A model generated the notes under the pieces. That model ran no database searches. It saw only the letters and a list, made by a program, of their open reading frames with translations, and had not been told where the DNA came from. The position numbers and the translations under genes were made by a program. Below are positions 35,749 to 51,440 of a stretch of DNA of 64,000 nucleotides, piece after piece. Numbering within the stretch: position 1 is the first letter of the stretch; every line of letters starts with the position of its first letter. Source of the DNA: an uncultured Bacillota bacterium (GTDB taxonomy: Bacteria; Bacillota; Clostridia; Christensenellales; UBA1242); contig UQVQ01000002.1 of assembly GCA_900544595.1 (NCBI GenBank), forward strand, positions 75,690 through 139,689, in the 5' to 3' direction.

Positions 35749-37668
35749 TTACATTATCTTCTGAAACATATGGCGAACCTTATCTAACCGACTATTTGGG
35801 CGGCGAGGTTGTACTACAGGTTCCCCTGAAGTTTCCTGATACCCTTTCAATTCTGTCAAGCAAACGCTTCTTCCATTTGTATAGAAATTCAAATCACTTT
35901 TGTATTCCCCAATCCGTCTTGCTGGTATTTCTCCAGTTAAGATCGCTTCATTATTTTTTATTGAAGTTGTTTCAATTACCGCATCGTATTTCACAGCATC
36001 ATGATAAGCCCGTGAAAGATATTCCTGCGGTGCAAACAGGGTAAAAGAAAGATAGGGTTCTAAAACCTGTGTTCCTGCTTTTTTTAATGCCAGTTCCAGC
36101 ACAATGGGCGCAAGAAAGCGGAAATCTGCCGGAGTACTGACCGGGCTGTAGTAAACACCATATTCAAAACAAATTCTGCAATCTGTTACCTCCCATCCAT
36201 ACACTCCCTGCTCTAATCCATACCGAATCCCTTCCATAACTGCGTTTTGAAAGCTTTGGTTTAAATAACCGAGAGGCACTTTACTTTCATATTCTGTTCC
36301 GCTTCCAACAGGAAGAGGAGTGACAGCCAAACCAATCGACGCCCAAAAGGGATTTGGCGGTACTTCAATATGAATTGTATAATGAGCCTCTTTTCGTGGT
36401 CTCTCCCGATAAATAACGGTAGGCTCTTTTATTGCTACCTCGACACTATATTTTTCATTTAATAAAGAACAAACAACTTCCAATTGTACTTTTCCCAAAA
36501 AGGAAAGAATAATTTCATGAGTAATAGAATCAATCATAAAATGCAGAAGCGGATCAGTATCCGCAATCTCTGTAAGGGCATCCAGTAATGCTTCCCTTTG
36601 CTCTGCTTTGATTGGCTCTATCGTTGTCCGAAAAAGCGGCAGGGGATTATCCGTCCATGCCTTGCGTGGCAATAGTTTTTCATCTCCCAGAACATCATTT
36701 AGTTTTAATGTATTGTCAGATAAAATAACAATCTCCCCGGAATCAGCGGTGTCTGTTGGGACGATTTCTCCATCAAATGGAATTGACATCTCTGTAATTT
36801 TAATTTTTTCCTTTTTTGACAGAAGAATCGTTTCCCGTAAACAAAGCGTACCGCTATACAGCCTTAAATAGCAACGTCGTTTTTTCTGCTCGGTATATTC
36901 AATTTTAAAAACATACCCGCACAGTTCCGATTGACAGTTATCTGTTTTCGATGAAAAAATATCTGTGATTACATCAAGCAATTTTTTTGTTCCGATATTC
37001 TCTTTTGCGCTTCCATGATATACCGGAAAAAAAGTTCCCTGCTGTACCCTTCGCTTTATTTCTTCCTGAAGTTCCCGCAATGTCAAAGGCGCTCCTGAAA
37101 GATATTTTTCTAAAAGATTATCATTCCCGGCAATCACAGCATCCCACTTTTCAAAATCCGCAACGTCGGAAAGTGTTAATTCTGGAAATAAATGAACTTC
37201 CTGCATAACCATCATATCTTCTGTCAATTTTTCTCTGATATTTTGATAAGTCTGTGCAGGAACAAAGCCTTCCTGATCGATTTTATTGATAAAAATAATG
37301 GTTGGTATCTTCATCTTCCTCAGCGCATGGAACAGCACTCTGGTCTGTGCCTGTACTCCATCTTTTGCAGATATTACTAAAATCGCTCCGTCCAGAACCG
37401 ATAAAGAGCGGTACACTTCTGTTATAAAGTCCATGTGTCCCGGTGTGTCTACAAGATTCACTTTGTACTCTTTCCAGTGAAAAGATGTAACGGCAGCCTG
37501 AATGGTAATTCCCCTTTGACGTTCCAAAGCCATAGAATCCGTTCTTGTTGTGCCTTTATCTACATTGCCCGGTTCCATGATTGCCCCGCTTGTATACAGC
37601 AAGCTTTCTGTCAGTGTTGTTTTTCCTGCATCAACGTGTGCAAGAATGCCAATATTGATTATTTTCAT
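35749..37668 (-). CDS. Tetracycline-resistance ribosomal protection protein (Tet(M)/Tet(O)/Tet(W)/Tet(32) group; allele not assignable without a search)
   Basis: 639 aa. [30 protein letters not shown]...[23 protein letters not shown]...[56 protein letters not shown] is nearly collinear with known Tet RPPs. The segment is visibly GC-richer than its surroundings. Confidence 0.95.
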
Positions 37669-37998: not shown

Positions 37999-38274
37999 TT
38001 ATTTATTTGTTCTAGGGAACGTCTGTTTGTCTACTTTACAACTTACAATCCCCTCTAATGGATAAATCCCTGTTGTGATATACTCATAATACTCGTTAGG
38101 TGACAACTTTGCCAACTGCCATTGATATCTGCTATTATTATAATAATCCATCCAGTCATCCACGATTGCTTTTACCTCACGATATTTGCTACATTCACTA
38201 ACATCTATCTCATCCTTCATATGTCCAAAAAAGCTTTCCTGTGGTGCATTATCCCAACAGTTTCCTTTCCGGAA
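37999..38274 (-). mobile_element. IS3-family transposase 3' remnant (last ~90 codons only)
   Basis: Reading frame gives FRKGNCWDNAPQESFFGHMKDEIDV...YYNNSRYQWQLAKLSPNEYYEY. This is the conserved RKGNC.DNA..ESFF..LK.E ... L..LSP.EY C-terminus of IS3/IS150-type OrfB. No N-terminal part or inverted repeats were seen. Confidence 0.75.
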
Positions 38275-39434
38275 ATAATCTCACCAGAATCCTCATCAAG
38301 ATTTTCTCTTATTTGTTTAGATATTTCTTTCTTCTCATTTTCAAGTTCTATAAGTTCTGGATTAAACTGAATTTGGTTTAATTCATCAATAATATTTCCC
38401 AAATCCATTCTCATAATTCCATTAATGTTTGATGTTTTGAAATATGTTTTCTTTCTAATTATGTCATTAATATCACTACTTAATTTTTCTAAAACATCTT
38501 TCTTAAACTCATTCTCATCAATAGTAAAATTATAGTTTCCAATCTTTTTAATCAAAAACTCATAATCATTTTTATTATTCTCTATTATAGAAATTTCTTT
38601 TCTGTAATTACTGATTTGTTCATTCAATAATTTCTTATTGTTTTCATGAGACGATATCTGATTTTTTACACTATCAATTTGAACTTGCTCTTTCAATAGT
38701 TTTTGATAATCCAATTTTAACTTTTGGAATTCTTCATCAAAGTTTTCTTTTGTCGCTGTGAAATTTTCAAATGATATTATTTGCTTATCAATTTTCTGTG
38801 AAATATTTATGTAAAAATTATCCACAAGTCTTTCTGGATTGTAATCTGTATTTTTACCATTAATGTTAGGTATCAATCTTAATGGCCTTATTTCTGGGAT
38901 TTTTGGCAATCTATCAAAGACATTATCAATGGCTTTATGAGTTTCGCTTGATACCAATATTTTTTTGCCTTTTTTTGTTAATTGAGCAATTATTTCAGCA
39001 ATAACTTGTGTCTTACCCGTTCCCGGTGGACCTTGCAATAAGAAAATACTTTCACTAGCAACTGCTTTTTTAACAGCTTCCTTTTGTCTATCATTTAAAC
39101 TTTGCAAATTCCATTCAATATCATCTTCTATATTGTGGTTAAGATTTTGTAATGACTTTGGCTCAAACAAATACCTTGACAAATAAGGATTTTTAACAAA
39201 ACCTTTGAAGAATGCGTCCAAAGATTTTTCTTGTCTTTCAATCTTCATTTTTTCTGCAATATTATTATATGTCATAAAACATGGCTTAATATTTTCAAGT
39301 TCTTTTCTTACTTCATCAACACTATTCTTTTCAATTTTAAATAGTATGTTAAATCTTCTAATTGTTTCATTTTCTATTGCTTTATTTATTTTTTCATTTT
39401 TAATATTTAATAGATACTCTTTTGTTTTAAACAA
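38217..39434 (-). pseudogene. Superfamily-1 (Upf1/DNA2-like, AAA_11-type) helicase fragment, 3'-truncated by the IS3/tet insertion
   Basis: Walker A segment LLQGPPGTGKTQVIAEIIAQL followed by KILVSSETHKAIDNV. The coiled-coil-like insert then breaks off near 38275-38290, where the frame runs into the IS3 remnant. No motifs III-VI are present. The frame is open upstream to 39566. Confidence 0.7.
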
Positions 39435-39523: not shown

Positions 39524-40795
39524 CTAACTTTTCTGCAAATTTTTTGCATTTTTCTTCATTTTTTTGTCAGAAATATCATTTTTTTCATTAAATTCTTTAA
39601 TTTTATTATTTTTTTCTAAATCAAGTTGCAAAGATAAGTCATCTAAATACTCATGAACTTCATCATTAATAATGTTGTTATATTGAGTTTCAACTTTGGC
39701 TTTATCATTCAAGTAATCGTTTTCAAATTCTTTTTCATACTTATCTGTGTTTGGTAAAATATCTTCTGCAAAAATTTTATATCTTTCATCTAATTGAATT
39801 GATTTTATTCCTGTTTGATTATTACTTGGTTCTTGTGCTGTTAAAGAAATGTCCTGTCTAGTAAATCTATTTAATAGTAATTCTTCTTTTGGTTTTCTAT
39901 CTTTTTCTGTCATAGCAGAATAAATTTCTTTTTTATTAAAGTCAACTTCAATGCTTACAAGTGGAAAACTCTCTGCCCCATCAACATTTTCAGTTATAAC
40001 AATTTGGTCATCTCTAACAAGTTCTTTATTTAATAATAATCCACTATATCTTTCTTCATTAAGTCTATAAACATTTCTAGGAATAATAAAAGTATTTAAT
40101 ATTTCACATTTATTAAATCTAATACATTTTTCAGATTGTGCTTCTAAATATTGTTTTCTAAATAATATATAATCTTTCCATTCTTCATAAGTTTGTAATA
40201 CTTTCTTATATTGTTTTACATAGAAAGGACTATTGACTAATCTATAAATAAAATCATTTGTTAAAACATTGCTTGCTGAATATTCATCAATGTTAACACC
40301 AAAATTGGGAACCTTAATTCCATTTGGAAGAACTTTTAATTCAAAAGCAACTGAACAATTACATTGAACACTTATCTCACTAACTTTATCTTCAATTTCA
40401 TCTATAAGTTCAATACCTTTAACGACAAACAAATAGTTTTTAAGACATTTTATATCTCCAATGATAATAATATCTTGACCTTCTGGTAAGAACCTTTTTA
40501 TTAAGGTATCCTTTTCTGGCCTTATGACAACATTTCTATAAATGTAATTTCCCTTTTTATCGCATTCCGCCCTTCTATCAAATGCCGGCATTGAAAAATG
40601 ATATATATTGGTCTTGTATGGGTTAAAACATTGATTCATAAATTCCTTAAAATTTTCAATAGTTGCCTTTTGAGTGTTTCCCATTTTCCTATAAATATTT
40701 GAATATTGCTCAACTAATGATGTGGAAAAATAGTCATCCCAATTTTGACTCCCTTTAACCATATTAAATGTGCAATCTAAAAATAAAAAATTCAT
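39524..40795 (-). CDS. Unknown ~420-aa protein; probably the N-terminal part of the downstream helicase gene, split by a frameshift
   Basis: GGAGGG RBS 5 nt before the ATG at 40795. Its 3' end overlaps the open frame of 38217..39566 by ~40 nt. Inserting one A in the A7 tract (39559-39565) would fuse them. Confidence 0.5.
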   Translation of the reverse strand: MNFLFLDCTFNMVKGSQNWDDYFSTSLVEQYSNIYRKMGNTQKATIENFKEFMNQCFNPYKTNIYHFSMPAFDRRAECDKKGNYIYRNVVIRPEKDTLIKRFLPEGQDIIIIGDIKCLKNYLFVVKGIELIDEIEDKVSEISVQCNCSVAFELKVLPNGIKVPNFGVNIDEYSASNVLTNDFIYRLVNSPFYVKQYKKVLQTYEEWKDYILFRKQYLEAQSEKCIRFNKCEILNTFIIPRNVYRLNEERYSGLLLNKELVRDDQIVITENVDGAESFPLVSIEVDFNKKEIYSAMTEKDRKPKEELLLNRFTRQDISLTAQEPSNNQTGIKSIQLDERYKIFAEDILPNTDKYEKEFENDYLNDKAKVETQYNNIINDEVHEYLDDLSLQLDLEKNNKIKEFNEKNDISDKKMKKNAKNLQKS

Positions 40796-41316
40796 CCTAT
40801 CCCTCCAACACGACATTTGTCAATACTAACCCATTTGCATTATAGCATATAATCAAAAGATTATCTTACTAAAATAAAAAAATCATCAACTTGTGTTGAT
40901 GACCAAAAATTTCTTTTTTCATGCAACACAAACAATGGAGCTAAATCCCATATAATTGAGTTACATACTTATAATTTTATCTATCTGGACTGTAGACCCG
41001 AACTTATAATACTCTCAAGGAAAACGAATACTATAAGATTTATAAAATGTAATTATATTAAATTATGTGCATTAGTTGACCTTCTTACCTGATATCCCTT
41101 GAAATATCTCATCACAACTCTATTATGCAAGAATAGAATAACAAAAACAATATTTTTTGTCAAGTATTACAAGGATTTTTTAATTTTAATTTTTCATTCT
41201 ATTTCGAATATAGCGCTCTCGTGTGTTCATCATTTGAACACGCGGGAATATTTTTATGTAAAAAATTTACCAACTCCAAGAGTTCAGCGTTTGAACTCTT
41301 CAAAAAAATTTACAAG

Positions 41317-41376
41317 AAAAAATAACCCAACACTAGTTGAGTTATTTTCTATATAAGTTATTAAATTTAATATATC
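41317..41376. repeat. Left copy of a ~60-bp direct repeat (terminator hairpin plus 30 conserved nt)
   Basis: AAAAAATAACCCAACACTAGTTGAGTTATTTTCTATATAAGTTATTAAATTT... About 90 percent identical to 46787-46846. Confidence 0.8.
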
Positions 41377-41440: not shown

Positions 41441-41626
41441 TTATTTCTTTTCTTCCCATTTAGAACAAGCTCCATTCATGCAACCTTGGTTTCCATTTCC
41501 TCTTGATTTAATTTTGCAAACGTGTGTGGAACCTTCCCATTTCACAGAACTTCCTTGTCGTTGCGAATTTCCTCCAAAATGCTGACAAGTACAACAACAT
41601 TTTTGACTTACTGGTGTTGAATTCAT
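41441..41626 (-). CDS. Small Cys-rich protein (61 aa, 7 Cys, CCCTC motif)
   Basis: AAGGAG RBS; 27 nt after the GmrSD-like gene. Cys at positions 10, 11, 12, 14, 37, 49 and 53. No family recognised. Confidence 0.5.
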   Translation of the reverse strand: MNSTPVSQKCCCTCQHFGGNSQRQGSSVKWEGSTHVCKIKSRGNGNQGCMNGACSKWEEKK

Positions 41627-41653: not shown

Positions 41654-43516
41654 TTATTTTTTAAATATAAACTTTGTTATTCTTTCTGCCACATTATTTG
41701 TCTCATTTTCTATATTTCCTTTATCCCATATTGGTTTTTCAATATTTTTATATTTTATCGCCAAGTAAGACGCCATTGGGTAATGGCTGTCTGCATAACA
41801 AAACTTTCCATCTATTGAATGGTGGACTTTAGTTCTAAACCAATCGTTACTTATAGACCTATTTATTTTTTGTTCTAGTAATATCTTATTTCCTATTTTA
41901 TTTACTATTTCATCAAACTCGTCTTTATCTTTTATATTGGCATCAATTTGTATTGCATAAATATTATGTCCACTAGCAGGCATTATGTGCTCTATATCAT
42001 ATTTATCATTTAAACTAAATTCTAAATGTTTTTCCTTAGCAAAAATAAATTCATTTAAATATACCAATAAATTTTTATCATAATCAGTTATATTTAATTT
42101 TATATCTTCTTCTTTCCAGTTAGAACAAATATGATTATTAAAATCTTCTACTATTTCAGAAATTGCGATACTATTGTTTAAGAACTTAACAGATTCGCCA
42201 AATAAAAACGTTTTAAAATTTTTACTTGAATAGCCGGCATCAACCAATTCTAGAATTACAAATAATCTCAACATAGTTTCTGAAAGTAATTCAACATTAT
42301 TTTTATCCAAAATATGGTTAATAAACCTATTAAAATAACACCCTAAAAATAATTTTGCGTTTTCGTTGAATTTTAATAGAATGTTTACAATTGGCATTTC
42401 ACTAACTTGGCTCCAAATTTTTGCAAGTGCGAGCATCTCGGTACAAGTCTTAATAGGGTTATCTATCAATTCTTTGTTTATTGCTGTAAAATATCTTCTT
42501 ACTCCCGGCACTGTAACATCAATAGACCCTGTTGATGTAACTACTTCATTATTTTTAGCTCTAGTAAGATACATATATTGCATTAAAATAGAATCTATGT
42601 CTAATATATTTTTTGCTGATAAAGCGTTCACAACATCCAATAATTCTTTCCAAATGTTAGAAAATTCACCATCTTTATTTAATCCTTTAGAAGTTGCGAA
42701 CAATTTTGCCGAAATTATATCCGCATCGCTTAATGGCATACCATCTGAGTTAAGAGAATTAAACATTGTTATAGCTTGTTCAATATTCCAACTTTTAATT
42801 TCAATGACTTCACATTTTTCAATTATAGTTTTTGCTATATTATTTACTTGACTACTATCTAATTCTTGTAATTTACCATAGAAAAACTTAAAATTTTTGA
42901 AAAAATTAGTATATATATTATCTTTTTGTTTATATTTTATTTTAAATACTTCGCGTTGTGCATCATCGTAATCTACAGCCTGCAGTATCCTATTTAACTC
43001 TTTTTTATATTCATCATTTTCATTATTTGATTTATTGATAAGAATATTTAATTGACTATAAAGTTTTTTATCTTCTTCTACATTTGGTTTTTCAGAAACA
43101 TCTTCAACTTCAGCATTATATAAAATATTTAAAATGGTTTTTCTACGATCTTTTAAACCTCTTAACAAACTACTAGACTCTTCATCATTTTCGCTAATTC
43201 GGCTAAGTAGATTATTAATATTTATCAGTAAAGCTTTCAGTAATAGTAAAAATGTAGTTGTTCTTTGTTGTCCATCTATTAGTTCATATAATGTATCTTT
43301 ATCATTACAACTAATAATGATTGTTCCAAAGAAATAATTATCTTTACCTTTGTTCTCTTTCTCTGAAAAATCGACAATATCTTGCCAAAGTTTATCACAA
43401 TTTTCAATTCCCCAAGAATATGGTCTTTGATATTCTGGTATTACGAATACTGCATCATCATCTAACTTTAAATATTCTCCAATTTTTCTTAATTTTGGTT
43501 CTATGTTTTTTGCCAT
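41654..43516 (-). CDS. GmrSD-family type IV restriction endonuclease (DUF262 + DUF1524)
   Basis: N-terminal IPEYQRPYSW and DGQQRTTT (DUF262/ParB-like NTPase). C-terminal DIEHIMP ... IGNKILLEQKINRSISN (DUF1524 His-Me finger). Confidence 0.85.
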   Translation of the reverse strand: MAKNIEPKLRKIGEYLKLDDDAVFVIPEYQRPYSWGIENCDKLWQDIVDFSEKENKGKDNYFFGTIIISCNDKDTLYELIDGQQRTTTFLLLLKALLININNLLSRISENDEESSSLLRGLKDRRKTILNILYNAEVEDVSEKPNVEEDKKLYSQLNILINKSNNENDEYKKELNRILQAVDYDDAQREVFKIKYKQKDNIYTNFFKNFKFFYGKLQELDSSQVNNIAKTIIEKCEVIEIKSWNIEQAITMFNSLNSDGMPLSDADIISAKLFATSKGLNKDGEFSNIWKELLDVVNALSAKNILDIDSILMQYMYLTRAKNNEVVTSTGSIDVTVPGVRRYFTAINKELIDNPIKTCTEMLALAKIWSQVSEMPIVNILLKFNENAKLFLGCYFNRFINHILDKNNVELLSETMLRLFVILELVDAGYSSKNFKTFLFGESVKFLNNSIAISEIVEDFNNHICSNWKEEDIKLNITDYDKNLLVYLNEFIFAKEKHLEFSLNDKYDIEHIMPASGHNIYAIQIDANIKDKDEFDEIVNKIGNKILLEQKINRSISNDWFRTKVHHSIDGKFCYADSHYPMASYLAIKYKNIEKPIWDKGNIENETNNVAERITKFIFKK

Positions 43517-43525
43517 AATCTTCTC

Positions 43526-44506
43526 CTATTCATATCTTTTGTTTATTTGTTTGACTATTTCTTTTATCTTATCCCTTGTGTCTTTTGGGGATAAAAGTTC
43601 TATATCTTCACCATATTGTAAGCACCAATAGATAAGTGAAGTTTCGTTTGCTGTTATATCTGCAAATATTGAGTTTTCTTTTTCATAAAGACTAGCATTT
43701 TTACCAAACCATTCTTCAACATAATTTGCAGCTTCTTCTCTATGAATTTTTACTGTCGCATTTATCGTTTTTGTCGCAAACATATAAATGTTTTCATTTA
43801 CATATTTTGCAATATCTAATCCATTTTCAAAACCTTTAACTTGCGTTACTGGTTTTATTGGTGTGTCTAAAATTTTAATGTTATGTATTCTTTCAAGCTT
43901 GTAGTTTCCTATTTCATCAAAATAATCATAATTACAAACTAAAAAATATTTTCCTTGATTATTTATTAGGCAATATGGGTTAACTTTATAGGGGTGCTTT
44001 TTTGTATTATTGTTTTTATATCCATTTCTAATATAATCAAACTCAATCTGTCTGTTATTTTCAATAGCTTCGTTAATTATATCAACATTATAAAATAGTT
44101 CTTTACTATCAGTTCTATTGAGTTCATCTGCTTTATACACATATTTGTATTGTTTTCGCTGATAAACACTTAAAAATTCTGATAGTTTTTTCGCAAGTTC
44201 TCTTGATTGCTTACTATTTATGCTTTTACTAGAAAATACAGCATCAACCAAAAACCTAATTTCACTTGGCTCAAACTCTCTACTAGCCAGATATGAGCCA
44301 GCATTTGTTTTGACAATGTCATAACCAAAATCTATCAAACTATCAATATTTGTGGCAATAGACTTTCTTTCACAAGTCATTCCATAAATATTGTTTATTT
44401 TAATAACTATATCATTTTGAGATAATAAATGATTTTCATCACTATAATCTCTTAACACTTGTAATGTGTATAGAATAGATAGTTTTTTATTTGATGATGA
44501 TGGCAT
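43526..44506 (-). CDS. WYL-domain transcriptional regulator (BrxR/CapW-like)
   Basis: N-terminal wHTH (LSILYTLQVLRDYSDENHLLSQNDIV...RKSIATNIDSLIDFGYDI). Central WYL-type segment (KVNPYCLINNQGKYFLVCNYD....YKLERIHNIKILD). Confidence 0.8.
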   Translation of the reverse strand: MPSSSNKKLSILYTLQVLRDYSDENHLLSQNDIVIKINNIYGMTCERKSIATNIDSLIDFGYDIVKTNAGSYLASREFEPSEIRFLVDAVFSSKSINSKQSRELAKKLSEFLSVYQRKQYKYVYKADELNRTDSKELFYNVDIINEAIENNRQIEFDYIRNGYKNNNTKKHPYKVNPYCLINNQGKYFLVCNYDYFDEIGNYKLERIHNIKILDTPIKPVTQVKGFENGLDIAKYVNENIYMFATKTINATVKIHREEAANYVEEWFGKNASLYEKENSIFADITANETSLIYWCLQYGEDIELLSPKDTRDKIKEIVKQINKRYE

Positions 44507-44521
44507 ATATTCTCCTTAATG

Positions 44522-44842
44522 TCAATTGGTTCTATAACCACTTCTTCTTAATGTTTCTTGTAATTTTCTTTTGAATTCTCTTTCATCAACCATATCATCA
44601 AGTTTATAATCAAATCTTGCGCCATTGTAACTTGATGAAGAACGAACATCTTTTGCTCCAGCAGTAGATAAAAAGTTTTGTATCTCTTTTTCAGGGTCAG
44701 CACATTTAATTGTATATCTTACTTCGATTTCGCCACCACAACTTCTTCTTATATAAATATTTCTTGCTCCGCTACGCGAAAGTTGTTCTTTAATTTCATT
44801 CTCTGGTTTTTTAAATTCTACATTAATGTTTGAATATTTCAT
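44522..44842 (-). CDS. Hypothetical 106-aa protein with an internal triplication
   Basis: AAGGAG RBS. The three units are PENEIKEQLSRSGARNIYIRRS / PEKEIQNFLSTAGAKDVRSSSS / DEREFKRKLQETLRRSGYRTN. No family recognised. Confidence 0.5.
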   Translation of the reverse strand: MKYSNINVEFKKPENEIKEQLSRSGARNIYIRRSCGGEIEVRYTIKCADPEKEIQNFLSTAGAKDVRSSSSYNGARFDYKLDDMVDEREFKRKLQETLRRSGYRTN

Positions 44843-44885: not shown

Positions 44886-46151
44886 TTAATTTTTTATAAT
44901 TTTTTTTATATCTTCTGAAATTAGCAACTTTTTCTTGTTTAATTCACTTGCTAGTTTGTCTAATGTGCCACGATTTTCAATTAGTATTTGTTTTACTTGT
45001 GCATAACTCTTTTCTAATTCATCATTAATGGATTTGTTTTGAAAAAATTTTTGCAATTCAGACACTTCGAAAGAAAAATACGAAGAACATTTGTCAAATC
45101 CATTTCCAGCATATTCAATGATAATTCTTTTTACCACTTCGACAGCTCTTTCAATATCTGATGAACAGCCAGCATCAAGTGTGCCGTATTTTATTTCAGT
45201 GGCACATTTTCCACCAAGCAAACATAATACTCTATTTTTCATGGATTTAACAGACTGCCAATAGCTTTCATCTCTGTAATATGCTGTAAAGCCACCAATT
45301 GATGAACCTTCATGCCCACCAATAGAAATCATTGTTACACTTTCTGGTTCCAAAATTTCGGCAATCAAAGCATGCCCAGCTTCATGATAAGCAGTTTGTT
45401 CATTGTCCTCACAAGTTCCATTTTTTATTGTTTCAGGAGCATTGTAAATAGTTCTAATACAAGCTCTTATAATATCATCAAACTCAATTTTATCTTTATT
45501 CTCAAATCCCGCATAAATTCCAGCTTGGTTTATTATTGTTTCAAGTTCCGCACAAGACCTGCCATTTAAAATTCGTGCTAACTGCTTAACATCTAGATTA
45601 GCAACTGCATTCTTTCCACTAAGGTAATGCTTGATTATCATTTCAGCATCTATCCCTTTTGGTGCTTTGATTTCAATACTAGTATCAAACCTTCCAGCTC
45701 TTAGCAAAGAATCAGGGACTAAACACAAATCATTTGCGGTTGCAATCACAAATACTTCAGAAGATTTAACATCATCAATACACGATTGAATAGTTACATA
45801 TTCTTCTGCATTCTTATGGTCTTTGTCTTCGTTTGCAAACTTATCAAAATCATCTAACAAAACTAATGACGGAGCATTGTTTTTTGCATCTTCAAAAGTT
45901 TTTTTGATGAATTTAATAAATTCATCATCTGGCAAATTTTTTCTGCAAACATAACATTTTTTACCACATTCTTCAATAAACGAATTAGCAATCAATGTTT
46001 TGCCTACACCGGGTTCTCCATAAAGTAATAAACCTTTTGGAATTTTGACACCCAATTTTTGATACTTATCACTATTTTTTATTACATCACAAATTCTTGC
46101 AATTTCTAACTTAATAGCATCATATCCAATAACCTTTTCAAAACCATTCAT
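44886..46151 (-). CDS. Soluble FtsH-like AAA+ ATPase / M41 zinc metalloprotease (no transmembrane region)
   Basis: Collinear with the FtsH cytosolic part: KIPKGLLLYGEPGVGKT (Walker A), LVLLDDFD (Walker B), VIATAN (sensor 1), LLRAGRFD (Arg fingers), AYHEAGHALI (HExxH), GCSSDIERA (third-ligand region). The ORF starts directly at the AAA module, with an AGGAGG RBS. Confidence 0.8.
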   Translation of the reverse strand: MNGFEKVIGYDAIKLEIARICDVIKNSDKYQKLGVKIPKGLLLYGEPGVGKTLIANSFIEECGKKCYVCRKNLPDDEFIKFIKKTFEDAKNNAPSLVLLDDFDKFANEDKDHKNAEEYVTIQSCIDDVKSSEVFVIATANDLCLVPDSLLRAGRFDTSIEIKAPKGIDAEMIIKHYLSGKNAVANLDVKQLARILNGRSCAELETIINQAGIYAGFENKDKIEFDDIIRACIRTIYNAPETIKNGTCEDNEQTAYHEAGHALIAEILEPESVTMISIGGHEGSSIGGFTAYYRDESYWQSVKSMKNRVLCLLGGKCATEIKYGTLDAGCSSDIERAVEVVKRIIIEYAGNGFDKCSSYFSFEVSELQKFFQNKSINDELEKSYAQVKQILIENRGTLDKLASELNKKKLLISEDIKKIIKN

Positions 46152-46359
46152 ATAATACCTCCTTTGGTTTTCAATTGCATTATACCAAAATGGGTGTACT
46201 AAAAATCGGACAACGATAATGAATTTTTATTTTTTTCGATAACACCTCCTAATCAAAATTTTTCAACACTACATATGTAATGTTTGAATAGTTAGTATAA
46301 ACTGCATAATTTGAGAGAATAATTAACTTAAATTATATTAATCGCGCAAACATTATACC

Positions 46360-46430
46360 ATAACTGATTGAATAATTATATCATTTTGTCAAAGATTTAC
46401 AAATTTTATAATAATAGCTCAATCAGTTAT
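46360..46430. promoter_or_regulatory. 12-bp perfect inverted repeat pair bracketing the putative XRE-gene promoter (candidate operator)
   Basis: ATAACTGATTGA (46360-46371) and TCAATCAGTTAT (46419-46430), with TTGTCA ... TATAAT-like boxes between them. Confidence 0.4.
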
Positions 46431-46471: not shown

Positions 46472-46786
46472 ATGGAAAAAATCACTTATGACGATGTTAT
46501 AACTAGAATGGGGTATTTTAGAAATAAGGCAAATTTGTCTATGAGAGAAACCAGCTTGCAACTAGGATACAACCCACAATTTATGTCCACAATTGAGAAT
46601 AAAACAATAAAATTAAAGGTAAAAACTCTTTTGGAATTTTGTGACCTAGTAGATATTACTCCACAAGATTTTTTCTATATGGGGGAACACTATAACAAAG
46701 AAGATAAAAATGTTTTAGATTTATATAACCATTTAACAGATGATAATAAACAAACAATATTAGATTTAATGAAAAAGTTGAAATAA
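46472..46786 (+). CDS. XRE-family helix-turn-helix transcriptional regulator
   Basis: LSMRETSLQLGYNPQFMSTIENKTIKLKVKTLLEFCDLVDITPQDFF is a typical Cro/C1 HTH. Divergent from the FtsH-like operon. Confidence 0.8.
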   Translation: MEKITYDDVITRMGYFRNKANLSMRETSLQLGYNPQFMSTIENKTIKLKVKTLLEFCDLVDITPQDFFYMGEHYNKEDKNVLDLYNHLTDDNKQTILDLMKKLK

Positions 46787-46862: not shown

Positions 46863-47234
46863 TTATAAATTCACCATAATACTTTTTACTCTTGGCATAA
46901 AAACATTGTATATATTCACAAGTTCGTTTGCCACCTTTTCTACATCAAGGTCAAAATCATAATTTGTATAGTTTGTTGTATCAAATCGTGGGTCGTTTAA
47001 TCGGCGAGGGCTTGGTTTTTTGTAATACTTTCCAAATCTACCAATTCTTGTTGCTATTTTTTCGTTATTTCTATCCCAAATAAGTTCATAACCAATTTCG
47101 TTTTCAATCTCTTTTTTATGCGAATAAAGTCTGTCATAAATAGTTTTTGCGGCTATACTTGGAAAAAAAACGCAAATATCTTTTAAATATCCACTTACAA
47201 CTCTTGTGTTTACCATAATTTTATTGAATGACAA
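46863..47234 (-). CDS. DUF4268-like protein, tandem copy A (possibly degenerate)
   Basis: KKEIENEIGYELIWDRNNEKIATRIGRF pattern (E.elG..L.W.r...k..RI), typical of DUF4268 by recollection. About 85-90 percent identical to copy B. Confidence 0.45.
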   Translation of the reverse strand: MSFNKIMVNTRVVSGYLKDICVFFPSIAAKTIYDRLYSHKKEIENEIGYELIWDRNNEKIATRIGRFGKYYKKPSPRRLNDPRFDTTNYTNYDFDLDVEKVANELVNIYNVFMPRVKSIMVNL

Positions 47235-47320: not shown

Positions 47321-47755
47321 CTAATTTATCAAAGAAACTCTTCTTATCTTTTCTTTATCTCTCATTTCAGAAACCTCTATTCCTAAAATACTTTTTACTC
47401 TTGGCATAAAAACATTATATATATTCACAAGTTCGTTTGCTACCTTTTTCACATCAAGGTCAAAATCGTAATTTGTATAGTTTGTTGTATCAAAACGTGG
47501 GTCATTTAATCGGCGAGAGCCTTTTTCTGTATAATACTTTCCAAATCTACCAATTCTTGTTGCTATTTTTTCGTTATTTCTATCCCAAATAAGTTCATAA
47601 CCAATTTGTTTTTCAATCTCTTTTTTATACAAATAAAGTTTGTCGTAAATAGTTTTTGCATCTTTATCTCCAAGATACACACAAATATCGTGCAAACAAG
47701 CATAACGGTCAACTCTTACATTTACCATAATTTTACTAAATGTCAAATCGTTCAT
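47321..47755 (-). CDS. DUF4268-like protein, tandem copy B
   Basis: Same family pattern as copy A. Its frame is open upstream to the stop of the preceding 200-aa ORF, and it runs into copy A before a 1-nt deletion shifts the frame. Confidence 0.45.
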   Translation of the reverse strand: MNDLTFSKIMVNVRVDRYACLHDICVYLGDKDAKTIYDKLYLYKKEIEKQIGYELIWDRNNEKIATRIGRFGKYYTEKGSRRLNDPRFDTTNYTNYDFDLDVKKVANELVNIYNVFMPRVKSILGIEVSEMRDKEKIRRVSLIN

Positions 47756-49763: not shown

Positions 49764-50054
49764 TCAGTTCTCTCCACTATTTTTCTCCAAAACAGTTGTG
49801 TTCGTTGGTACACTTCCCCCTAGAAGTGGATAGGACTTCATGTAACAACCTTTACCTTTAATTGTAACAATGTCGCACCCATACTCCCTAAGATAACCAA
49901 TATTGCGAGCAATTGTTTTTCTATCACAAGAAATCCCACAGAATTTGCTAATTTGTTCTGCGATTTTTGTTTGATGCAAAGGACAATTTTCCGAACTTCC
50001 ATATTTTAATGCATCATAAACATATAATATAATAAGTTTTTTGTGTTTTTTCAC
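49764..50054 (-). CDS. Stand-alone winged-HTH protein related to the N-terminus of WYL regulators
   Basis: GTG start with a GGAGGTG RBS. LIILYVYDALKYGSSENCPLHQTKIAEQISKFCGISCDRKTIARNIGYLREYGCDIV parallels residues ~9-66 of the WYL regulator at 43526..44506. Confidence 0.5.
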   Translation of the reverse strand: MKKHKKLIILYVYDALKYGSSENCPLHQTKIAEQISKFCGISCDRKTIARNIGYLREYGCDIVTIKGKGCYMKSYPLLGGSVPTNTTVLEKNSGEN

Positions 50055-50155: not shown

Positions 50156-50776
50156 TTAATTTTCCAGCAAATCTTCGATATTACAACCCAAAACTCTTGC
50201 TAGTTTGTAAAGTGTTTCAACTTGTGCTTTGTTTATGTCGTTTCTTCGTTGTTCATACATTTGAATAGAGCGAAGTTCCACTTCTGCAAGACTTGCAAGT
50301 TTGCTTTGAGATAAGCCTCGTGCTTGTCTTATTTTTTTTAGGTTGGTGATTTCAGACTTTTTGAAATATGTGTTCGCTACATCAAAAAACTTTGTTACAT
50401 CGGCTTCGTGCAAGGTTGGATATAGTCTTAAAACTTCTTCAATAGGCAATGAATTATTTATCTTATAGAAAGAATATCCTTTTTTGTGTTGGAATTGTGC
50501 CAAAACCCAGCCAGCCCAATAATATTTATCTTTGTTTATATCTTCTTTGTTTGGAATGGATTTTTTTCTATTATAAATTTCATTCAAATAATCTAATGCA
50601 GAGCAGGTAAGATATTTTGGATTTCCTTTTTCAATTTGTTTTGCCACATTGGAATTGACAAAGGTGTTCCAAAAAATTGTAGGGTTTATTCCAATATCCA
50701 CAGCATGCTCAAACATTACACCCAAATTTTCGGATAGATTTGGTAAATATAAATCGTTATATGATTGAATCGCCAT
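50156..50776 (-). CDS. DUF3791-like N-terminal domain fused to a C-terminal XRE-type HTH
   Basis: C-terminus IRQARGLSQSKLASLAEVELRSIQMYEQRRNDINKAQVETLYKLARVLGCNIEDLL is a classic XRE HTH. It overlaps the upstream DUF3990 gene by 20 nt, and the DUF3990/DUF3791 pairing is common in Firmicutes. Confidence 0.6.
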   Translation of the reverse strand: MAIQSYNDLYLPNLSENLGVMFEHAVDIGINPTIFWNTFVNSNVAKQIEKGNPKYLTCSALDYLNEIYNRKKSIPNKEDINKDKYYWAGWVLAQFQHKKGYSFYKINNSLPIEEVLRLYPTLHEADVTKFFDVANTYFKKSEITNLKKIRQARGLSQSKLASLAEVELRSIQMYEQRRNDINKAQVETLYKLARVLGCNIEDLLEN

Positions 50777-51440
50777 CTTTTAACCCCTTTCTCATAATAT
50801 CCACTACAAATATATCATTGGTTAGTGTCGCCGACTTTCTAGTACCTTTCAAATAATCTTCTCGTGCCTTTTCATCTCTTGCTTTTCTTTTTGTAAAGTA
50901 TTCCAATCTGTCTGCAGTTTCAAAACCTTCAAAATGAAGTTTACTAAATGCAAGTTCGCTAACTATTACAACTTGCTTTCCAAGTTGACCTAATTCCATA
51001 GCTTGACTTAATTTTCTAACAGGAATTGTATTGTTTACAAAATCTCTTGCAAAACTAAAATATGAGTCGTCTGCTCTAAACCCAATAACTATATCGTAAT
51101 TATTTACATCAATGTAAAAGTTTTTGAGCAAGTATTCTTTTGCTTGAATAGATATATCATTGCTCAAATCAAAAGTTCTAAATTTTAAAAGTATTGCAAT
51201 CCAGTTCAGTATTGAATATCTTTTATCTGTTAAATCTAGAATTTTAAGCCCAGACAAATCAATAGAATATTTATTTGCAAATCCATTATTTTCGTTATTA
51301 CTGCAAGACCACTCTTTTGCAAGTTCCAAACTTTCTGTGCAATAAAATCCAAAACCATAATCATTTTCGGCTTTCCCACCGTGATAATATGGTTTTTCAA
51401 TAATATCTTTTGAACCGTGATAAATAACCAACTTTGACAT
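50757..51440 (-). CDS. DUF3990 domain protein (ADP-ribosyltransferase-like H-Y-E motifs by eye)
   Basis: MSKLVIYHGSKDIIEKP...DYGFGFYCTES is typical of DUF3990 N-termini; AAGGAG RBS. Confidence 0.7.
   Translation of the reverse strand: MSKLVIYHGSKDIIEKPYYHGGKAENDYGFGFYCTESLELAKEWSCSNNENNGFANKYSIDLSGLKILDLTDKRYSILNWIAILLKFRTFDLSNDISIQAKEYLLKNFYIDVNNYDIVIGFRADDSYFSFARDFVNNTIPVRKLSQAMELGQLGKQVVIVSELAFSKLHFEGFETADRLEYFTKRKARDEKAREDYLKGTRKSATLTNDIFVVDIMRKGLKDGDSII

Follow-up and report, generated by a model that had tools for sequence, protein, structure and literature searches.

An anchorless FtsH-derived AAA-M41 family without a pore-1 loop, tied to WYL-regulated defence cassettes in Clostridia

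What can a ring of AAA ATPase domains do for the protease that it carries when the ring is no longer able to thread a substrate? The question is raised by a gene in a stretch of 64,000 nucleotides, here called the window, from an uncultured Bacillota bacterium of the class Clostridia (GTDB Christensenellales, UBA1242; GenBank assembly GCA_900544595.1, contig UQVQ01000002.1, positions 75,690 to 139,689 of the forward strand). The gene encodes a 421-residue relative of FtsH, referred to below as the AAA-M41 protein, in which an AAA module is fused to an M41 zinc protease domain. FtsH-type proteases are the textbook membrane-anchored motor, in which an aromatic loop pulls the substrate through the pore. 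The AAA-M41 protein represents a large, uncharacterised family of FtsH relatives that lacks both the anchor and this loop and is tied to WYL-regulated defence cassettes. A preliminary description of the gene, made from the letters of the window alone, had pointed to these losses and to an altered Walker B motif, and had suggested a protease gated differently from a processive unfoldase.

A cytosolic FtsH module without anchor or pore-1 loop

The gene, its ribosome-binding site, and the motifs of its product are as follows, where residue numbers are those of the AAA-M41 protein and invariance refers to the 149 family representatives introduced below.

44886..46151, minus strand: AAA-M41 open reading frame, 421 amino acids (aa), ATG start; AAA module, AAA lid and M41 zinc protease domain
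46158..46165, minus strand: ribosome-binding site AAAGGAGG, 6 nt before the ATG of the AAA-M41 gene
45996..46019, minus strand: Walker A motif GEPGVGKT, residues 45-52, from the translation; G48, G50 and K51 invariant in 149/149
45912..45947, minus strand: pore-1 remnant CRKNLPDDEFIK, residues 69-80; a short basic turn (R70, K71), then F78 inside helix alpha2
45843..45866, minus strand: Walker B motif with Asp-Asp, LVLLDDFD, residues 96-103, aligned with FtsH; replaces hhhhDE
45684..45743, minus strand: sensor 1 (N140) and the arginines of the second region of homology (R151, R154), ATANDLCLVPDSLLRAGRFD, from the translation
45372..45386, minus strand: zinc-binding and catalytic motif HEAGH, residues 256-260, from the translation
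45144..45164, minus strand: SSDIERA, residues 330-336, with D332 aligning with the third zinc-ligand region of FtsH

The open reading frame begins where the AAA module of FtsH begins, as the preliminary description had it, and lies on the minus strand. Pfam assigns residues 41-162 to AAA (6e-21), 186-227 to AAA_lid_3, and 248-418 to Peptidase_M41 (1.1e-19), while the match to the FtsH profile TIGR01241 begins at profile position 161 and runs to the end of the profile, so that the transmembrane (TM) and periplasmic part of FtsH is absent. A hydropathy scan found no TM helix in the protein, the maximum Kyte-Doolittle mean over 19 residues being 1.27. The absence of this part had been ascribed to the protein itself, not to a truncation, on the strength of the ribosome-binding site and the non-coding DNA upstream, and this has held: 320 bp of non-coding DNA separate the gene from a divergent XRE gene at 46472, several stop codons close the reading frame upstream of the ATG, and the relatives of the protein share its start and its length of about 420 aa, with an upstream anchor in none of them. 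The AAA-M41 protein is confirmed as a complete FtsH cytosolic module (AAA, lid, and M41) without a membrane anchor. Its top sequence match in the PDB is Thermus thermophilus FtsH (2dhr, 3.7e-44) and its best solved relatives are FtsH cytosolic regions, and it scores 203 bits against TIGR01241, where the curated cutoff is 600, and 123 bits against NF008004, where the cutoff is 1008.

The AAA domain departs from that of FtsH in its Walker B motif and in its pore loops. In both phmmer and hhalign alignments, LVLLDDFD pairs with IVFIDEID of FtsH, and the Walker B glutamate is replaced by aspartate. The two methods place F78 differently in the pore-1 region, where the pairwise phmmer alignment sets F78-I-K under F-V-G of FtsH and then opens a gap of four residues, and the profile-profile hhalign alignment sets F78 under the Phe of the FtsH sequence SDF and deletes the whole eight-residue aromatic-hydrophobic-glycine (Ar-phi-Gly) loop. 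An AlphaFold (AF2) model of the monomer, built from a 63-sequence alignment (mean predicted local distance difference test score, pLDDT, 88.3; predicted template modelling score, pTM, 0.79), has strand beta2 at residues 65-69, a five-residue turn RKNLP (70-74), and an unbroken helix at 75-91. The hhalign placement is favoured because the model shows a short turn that is followed by this continuous helix, and under neither alignment does the protein have an Ar-phi-Gly motif or a Walker B glutamate in register. The pore-1 loop is excised in the family, and the claims that the loop is replaced by a shorter segment and that Walker B reads LLDDFD are both sustained. The pore-2 region (KFANEDKDHKNAEE) is acidic and shorter than that of FtsH.

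In other respects the protein resembles FtsH/HflB, YME1, and AFG3L2 (MEROPS family M41), with which it shares the two-domain cytosolic module in sequence and in fold, and the model superposes on the subunits of FtsH (3kds), YME1 (6az0), and AFG3L2 (6nyy) with TM-scores of about 0.8. Walker A, sensor 1 and the arginines of the second region of homology (ATAND...LLRAGRFD, residues 137-156), HExxH, and the third-ligand Asp are all kept, which had likewise been read correctly from the translation. The AAA-M41 protein descends from FtsH, yet it fails on the anchor with its TM helices and extracytoplasmic domain, on the Walker B glutamate, on the pore-1 motif, and on the curated score, and where FtsH is a housekeeping gene the AAA-M41 gene is an accessory gene in defence islands.

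This anatomy, noted in the preliminary description for a single gene, is family-wide. More than 100 clusters at 50-94% identity came out of a protein search; nearly all have about 420 aa and the same domain matches, and their public names are no more specific than "AAA family ATPase" or a generic FtsH label. One of the related loci (L008, from UMGS1429) encodes a protease 98% identical to that of the window. A scan of one genome per species found a relative in at least 554 genomes, almost all of them Clostridia and other Bacillota from gut and rumen; a few of the carriers are cultured strains (Lachnoanaerobaculum orale DSM 24553, Schwartzia succinivorans DSM 10502, and Butyrivibrio sp. VCD2006). 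A search of representatives at 50% clustering listed 150 matches at E <= 1e-79, of which 148 belong to the family and two are multi-AAA FtsH-like proteins of more than 1100 aa; in all, the family comprises more than 150 clusters at 50% identity. Conservation was assessed over the window protein and these 148 representatives (n = 149). The Asp-Asp Walker B is present in 147/149 (and in 63/63 sequences in a further count), the HExxH residues H256, E257, and H260 each in 148/149, the third zinc-ligand Asp D332 in 143/149, the sensor-1 Asn N140 in 146/149, R151 in 146/149, and R154 in 145/149. The near-invariance of the nucleotide and zinc sites over 149 sequences indicates that both active sites are under selection. 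A basic residue occupies the positions of R70 and K71 in 141/149 and 143/149 sequences, respectively, and F78 is Phe in 135/149, retained beside the lost loop. What defines the family is the Asp-Asp Walker B together with the short basic turn.

Phage records returned only matches of less than 30% identity, to genuine ftsH or other AAA genes, and no family member was among the matches listed for IMG/VR, and a phage origin of the family is not supported by these searches. More distant anchorless AAA-M41 genes occur on large clostridial plasmids: a 420-aa version with 37% identity lies among replication genes on the Butyrivibrio plasmid pCY186 (L088), and a 574-aa version with an N-terminal extension and 29% identity lies on Clostridium botulinum plasmids (L089, pCLK).

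A WYL regulator, interchangeable nucleases, and a shared promoter repeat

In the window, the AAA-M41 gene heads a tight row of five minus-strand genes with gaps of 9-43 bp, and these genes and the elements around them are listed here.

44522..44842, minus strand: 106-aa protein, second gene of the operon, with a tandem alpha-beta-beta repeat
43526..44506, minus strand: transcription regulator of 326 aa with winged helix-turn-helix (wHTH), WYL, and WCX domains, BrxR/CapW/DriD type (Pfam WYL 1.2e-10, WCX 3.4e-07; PADLOC WYL 1.4e-28)
41654..43516, minus strand: GmrSD-family type IV restriction nuclease, 620 aa (Pfam GmrSD_N 1.5e-32, GmrSD_C 1e-12; PADLOC HEC-06 1.7e-37, plus Orf5 and SspE)
41441..41626, minus strand: 61-aa Cys-rich protein, final gene of the operon; an open reading frame containing CCC-x-C, no family match
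41317..41343, minus strand: terminator-like hairpin AACTCAAC-tagt-GTTGGGTT, then ATTTTTT, 3' of the last gene, read by eye
46195..46212, minus strand: inverted repeat TGTCCGATTTTTAGTACA (TGTMC-N8-GKACA), candidate operator, just upstream of the -10 element
46179..46187, minus strand: putative extended -10 promoter element TGGTATAAT, invariant in an alignment of six upstream sequences
46472..46786, plus strand: divergent XRE-type HTH protein, 104 aa (weak Pfam HTH_19 and HTH_26; PADLOC HTH_VI 5.4e-06)

The conserved partner of the protease is the WYL regulator, in a defence island with a shared promoter repeat, and this the preliminary description had overlooked. The neighbourhood was compared by calling open reading frames with a simple picker in 87 related loci and the window and clustering the neighbours; from a larger set of loci, the best 80 were sampled. 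No other neighbour comes close in frequency to the WYL regulator, which occurs in 40/79 non-redundant loci and, where both flanks extend for 4 kb or more, lies within 4 kb of the protease in 29/49. Its gene has the strand of the protease in 37/40 loci, is the first or second gene downstream (offset +1 or +2) in 20/40 and lies directly upstream in others. Behind it come single-gene defence nucleases of several kinds, namely GmrSD/HEC-06, a GIY-YIG protein that matches UzuA of Uzume (7e-50), and PDDEXK_4 proteins that match PDC-S26 (1e-43), and the nuclease differs between near-identical protease and WYL pairs: the window carries GmrSD, L008 a protein of the UzuA-like GIY-YIG cluster, and L001 PDC-S26. 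The divergence of the protease is correlated with that of the adjacent WYL regulator (r = 0.79, Mantel p ~5e-4). At one chromosomal site, a segment with protease and WYL genes is present on two contigs (L090 and L092) and absent from another (L091), and together with the low GC content of the operon (28.4% compared with 33.7% for the 64-kb window) and the variable genomic position, this gives the AAA-M41 gene an accessory character.

The association was also sampled in reverse, taking 80 loci from metagenomes with the WYL profile. The protease was upstream and on the same strand in 17 of the 44 WYL loci with enough upstream DNA, and only 8 of the 26 fully flanked WYL loci contained it. This reciprocal count rejects an obligate pair, and the link between protease and WYL regulator is facultative in both directions.

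The class of the regulator is supported by a profile built from 22 homologues, which matches WYL-domain proteins in the PDB at ~4e-06, including 8tp8, deposited as a DeoR-family regulator, which we take to be DriD; the match of the profile to PafBC is weak (0.0066), with no matched stretch that passes alone, and a PDB search with the single window sequence gave no match. A layout of this kind recalls the WYL-regulated defence operons of the BrxR and CapW type (PMC9122601, PMC9122589, PMC11662680), which likewise combine a wHTH-WYL-WCX regulator with a promoter inverted repeat and a nuclease cargo that includes GmrSD. There the regulator heads the operon, whereas in the commonest AAA-M41 layout it lies behind the protease gene. 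The papers searched do not name an AAA-M41 protease as a partner of WYL regulators, and literature searches on M41 or FtsH-like proteins in connection with anti-phage defence, defence islands, or WYL, and on soluble FtsH paralogues, gave no description of the AAA-M41 family.

The upstream DNA of the window and five relatives was aligned, and in L008 and L004 conservation ends about 65 nt upstream of the gene, the conserved part consisting of TTGTCCGATTTTTAGTACA, then TGGTATAAT, and then the ribosome-binding site, with unrelated DNA beyond. The strict pattern TGTMC-N8-GKACA has a single match in the 64-kb window, at 46195-46212, and occurs at -150..-20 in 13/70 loci where 0.0026 are expected per interval searched; a relaxed pattern occurs in 20/70 loci compared with a background of 7.9% (p = 3e-7). 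The repeat with 7-9 A/T-rich bases in its centre (TGTMC-N7-9-GKACA) stands next to the -10 element of the protease gene in the window, L001, L004, L008, L011, L012, L013, L018, L020, L021, L037, L050, and L075, and it recurs at this position in many of the more distant loci. The strict repeat is also present 41-59 nt upstream of three WYL genes with a promoter of their own (L018, L040, and L086), and the inverted repeat precedes a DUF2779 gene in another locus. From its position, and by analogy with BrxR and CapW (PMC9122601, PMC9122589, PMC11662680), the repeat would most simply be the operator of the WYL regulator. A second repeat variant, TGTACCGAAAACGNCGCA, recurs in L022, L028, L029, L038, and L071, and both variants together may define a WYL regulon in Clostridia.

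A further promoter-like site (TTGTAA-16-TATAAT with TG) lies at 46375-46402 on the minus strand, between the XRE and protease genes, and is bracketed by a 20-nt inverted repeat (window 46360-46430, 85% complementary, arms 31 nt apart). This distal site is not conserved beyond close relatives and was not adopted as the promoter of the operon. Its 20-nt repeat is shared only by those close relatives in which the XRE gene is present too, and for this reason may be an operator of the XRE protein.

Of the proteins that the preliminary description had proposed as candidate substrates, the 106-aa protein and the XRE regulator do not behave as partners of the protease. The 106-aa protein has no Pfam, PADLOC, NCBIfam, or PHROG match and forms a narrow family of 53 homologue clusters, nearly all of 106 aa, with three internal repeats of the form E-I-x-x-x-L-S-x-x-G-A-[KR]. 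Its AF2 model (pLDDT 89) consists of two helix-strand-strand units and a further helix and has no significant fold match in the PDB (best E = 0.015, TM-score 0.33). By tblastn the protein was detected in 5/87 fetched loci; when the window is counted too, five loci have it behind the protease, and all five are close relatives. It is found as well at the end of GmrSD operons without a protease (L091) and right after an Nmad3 gene in integrase elements (L093-L095) that carry an HEPN_AbiU2 gene. In L004, L010, and L054 its place between protease and WYL regulator is taken by a 79-aa protein with YGED[AV]K repeats and no family match, even where the protease is 93% and GmrSD 99% identical to those of the window. 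This distribution rules the 106-aa protein out as partner or substrate, and the XRE protein is set aside in the same way, its gene being present in only 6/87 loci, all of them closely related.

The 61-aa Cys-rich protein accompanies this particular GmrSD, directly following the GmrSD homologue in L010 (98% identity) and L054 (95%), and could serve this GmrSD subtype as a small accessory that binds zinc. The terminator-like hairpin behind its gene is not among the sites listed by a terminator scan. In other loci, two mutually unrelated genes of phosphatase type repeatedly adjoin the protease, a calcineurin-like phosphoesterase in 16 loci (L005, L018, L039, L040, L048, L086, and others) and a DSPc-like phosphatase in four (L026, L059, L072, and L077). 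An unassigned 208-aa protein is encoded in eight loci (L052, L062, L073, L074, L078, L079, L083, and L085), always directly upstream of the protease; DUF2779 (11 loci) and a PtuA-like ATPase also recur.

The surroundings of the operon in the window are accessory genes, all of those that follow being on the minus strand. The next gene beyond the operon end (39524-40816) encodes a 430-aa protein without a family match. At 38217-39434 lies a 405-aa helicase-type ATPase (AAA_11) whose match to the Mokosh MkoA model (1.8e-32) is confined to the middle of that model, so that it may be a fragment or a short variant, and at 35749-37668 a 639-aa EF-G-like GTPase (GTP_EFTU, EFG_III, EFG_IV, and EFG_C), which to judge by size and architecture may protect ribosomes against tetracycline in the manner of Tet(M) and Tet(W). 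On the other side, tandem paralogues of 123 and 144 aa (46863-47234 and 47321-47755) are near-identical over most of their length, the longer of them matching DUF4268. The 96-aa open reading frame at 49764-50054 shares 42% identity with residues 1-71 (the wHTH) of the operon WYL regulator (E = 1e-13) and has neither WYL nor WCX; its sequence suggests a second WYL-type regulator of the island that has been truncated or frameshifted. The overlapping genes at 50156-50776 and 50757-51440 encode a DUF3990 protein (227 aa) and then a 206-aa protein with a C-terminal HTH_3, a layout that resembles a toxin-antitoxin pair.

A proposed gated protease and the readings that compete with it

We estimate at roughly one in two the probability that the AAA-M41 protein is a WYL-controlled, inducible, ATP-gated, and non-threading cytosolic AAA+/M41 metalloprotease, derived from FtsH, at the head of a defence-island operon. 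It would form an FtsH-like hexamer, because the retained arginine fingers make sense only between subunits. A dimer of the WYL regulator would bind TGTCC-N8-GTACA and repress the operon until a ligand appears in infection or DNA damage; for CapW, DriD, and PafBC the ligand is single-stranded DNA (PMC11662680, PMC11804915). Once made, the protease would not thread folded proteins; its ring, a slow or switch-like ATPase without a pulling loop, may instead use its nucleotide state to drive assembly or access to the M41 chamber, so that only unstructured or specifically docked proteins would be cut. The target is probably encoded outside the operon, as a phage or a host protein, since the protease gene also occurs alone and its small neighbours vary. 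Of the earlier suggestion of a differently gated protease, the gating stays plausible, in that the anatomy of the whole family is consistent with a protease that is gated and not processive, whereas the 106-aa and XRE proteins do not hold as substrates.

The Iet anti-phage and plasmid-stabilisation system (IetA/IetS) offers a helpful parallel for a protease gated by an ATPase: there too an FtsH-like AAA ATPase works with a protease in a defence setting, and the ATPase restrains the protease (PMC13069673). The Iet protease is a separate serine protease, whereas in the window protein the M41 domain is fused, and IetA carries an FtsH-like extracellular domain (PMC10924106). Pfam and PADLOC detected no IetS-like serine protease among the four other operon genes, the divergent XRE gene, and the next gene at 39524-40816. 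The AAA part matches IetA models (PADLOC 4.5e-24; NF042959 4.3e-19, with 68.9 bits against a cutoff of 510 and over residues 12-238 only), and a specific kinship to IetA is rejected, this part scoring higher against PAN and FtsH models.

Several observations weigh against the reading of a WYL-controlled, non-threading protease. The conserved F78 might still act as a pore residue, and an Asp-Asp Walker B may hydrolyse ATP perfectly well. In about 40% of the well-flanked protease loci, the 4 kb on either side contain no WYL gene, the low reciprocal count (8/26) points the same way, and the correlated divergence of protease and WYL regulator could simply reflect a shared host phylogeny. The strict repeat is limited to 13/70 loci, and binding by the WYL regulator is suggested by its position only. 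Several protease genes are solitary between convergent neighbours, and some of these keep the inverted repeat.

The constancy of the protease and WYL pair in front of swapped nucleases, the near-adjacency of the two genes on one strand, and their correlated divergence would also be explained if the AAA-M41 protein were a regulatory protease that cleaves or degrades the WYL repressor, either firing the downstream nuclease or resetting the response afterwards. Precedents for firing are CapP, which acts on CapH, and ImmA, which acts on ImmR, and for resetting the Pup-proteasome in the PafBC response. CapH/CapP and ImmR/ImmA resemble the present loci in that genes for a metalloprotease and a repressor stand side by side ahead of a variable cargo of defence or mobile-element genes, but their repressors are XRE-type, and their proteases belong to a family different from M41, CapP and ImmA types being small ATP-independent metallopeptidases. 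An obligate pairing of protease and repressor of the CapH/CapP type is not what the AAA-M41 and WYL genes display (29/49 protease loci, 8/26 WYL loci). A WYL regulator encoded with an AAA-dependent protease system is known from Actinobacteria, where pafBC, for WYL regulators of the DNA-damage response, lies in the Pup-proteasome cluster (PMC5656591, PMC8223512); that system differs in that its protease is unrelated (20S proteasome, Mpa, and pupylation), PafBC is an activator, the phylum is another, and there is no defence island. Most WYL homologues of the present clade have no protease nearby and so function without it, the protease is often alone between convergent genes, and WYL regulators are known to respond to a ligand and not to cleavage (PMC11662680). 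Cleavage of the WYL repressor is on these grounds possible and rather unlikely.

The turn that replaces the pore-1 loop bears the conserved basic pair R70/K71, and next to the protease are encoded DNA nucleases and a WYL regulator of a type known to sense single-stranded DNA. Such features might point to a ring that binds DNA or is activated by it and whose substrates are proteins on DNA, for instance repressors, DNA-binding proteins of phages, or protein-DNA adducts. The winged-helix DNA-binding domain FtsK_gamma is fused to the C-terminus in two representatives (P0204, 49.8 bits; P0177, 22 bits), and in L017 a separate 166-aa gamma-like protein, which at 27.5 bits stays below the Pfam cutoff, is encoded immediately 3' of the protease without a gap. 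These fusions are nevertheless rare (2/149), the acidic pore-2 region is ill-suited to DNA in the channel, and Pfam finds no DNA-binding domain in the window protein. A link of the protease to nucleic acid must be considered doubtful.

More improbable still is a housekeeping or stress protease or chaperone, which would serve cytosolic quality control in Clostridia in the manner of Bacillus subtilis YjoB and have nothing to do with defence. The family is widespread in Bacillota, and YjoB, a soluble AAA hexamer of this phylum with non-canonical pore loops and a proposed ATP-regulated chamber, indicates that such rings can work through a chamber and not by threading (PMC9565160). YjoB, however, is built differently, having a Bcs1-like N-terminal domain with the AAA domain and no M41 protease, and it was not among the 60 best PDB sequence matches listed for the AAA-M41 protein. 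The variable position and presence/absence polymorphism of the AAA-M41 gene, the low GC content of its operon, and neighbours that are overwhelmingly defence genes and WYL regulators also speak against a housekeeping role. A truncated ftsH, pseudogene, or decaying relic, for which only the scores far under the curated FtsH cutoffs (203 and 600 bits) could be cited, is refuted by the family data, with hundreds of full-length relatives of the same start and length, almost invariant catalytic residues, a ribosome-binding site and promoter belonging to the gene itself, and a confident fold prediction.

Implications for AAA+ proteases and for defence in gut Clostridia

Conserved in at least 554 species genomes, the AAA-M41 family has kept the protease and the nucleotide site and lost the anchor, the pulling loop, and the catalytic glutamate, and it is in this sense a natural experiment on the role of an AAA ring for a protease when threading is impossible. 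The position at the head of WYL operons with swappable anti-phage nucleases suggests a role for regulated proteolysis in the immunity of gut and rumen Firmicutes, which are poorly covered in defence studies, and homologues in cultured strains make these ideas directly testable. We also propose, tentatively and as a conjecture with a good deal less than an even chance, that the AAA-M41 protein is the signal-executing half of a hitherto unrecognised two-part front end, of which the WYL sensor and repressor is the other, that drives interchangeable defence nucleases. The protease would be ATP-gated, possibly also DNA-gated, and non-threading, and on infection it would cut one specific target, which may be the WYL repressor, a host protein, or a phage protein with an anti-restriction or regulatory role. 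If this two-part front end is true, the family would be a mechanistically new class of AAA+ protease, whose motor has become a gate, and would also constitute a new module of defence or regulation that is common among the Clostridia of the gut.

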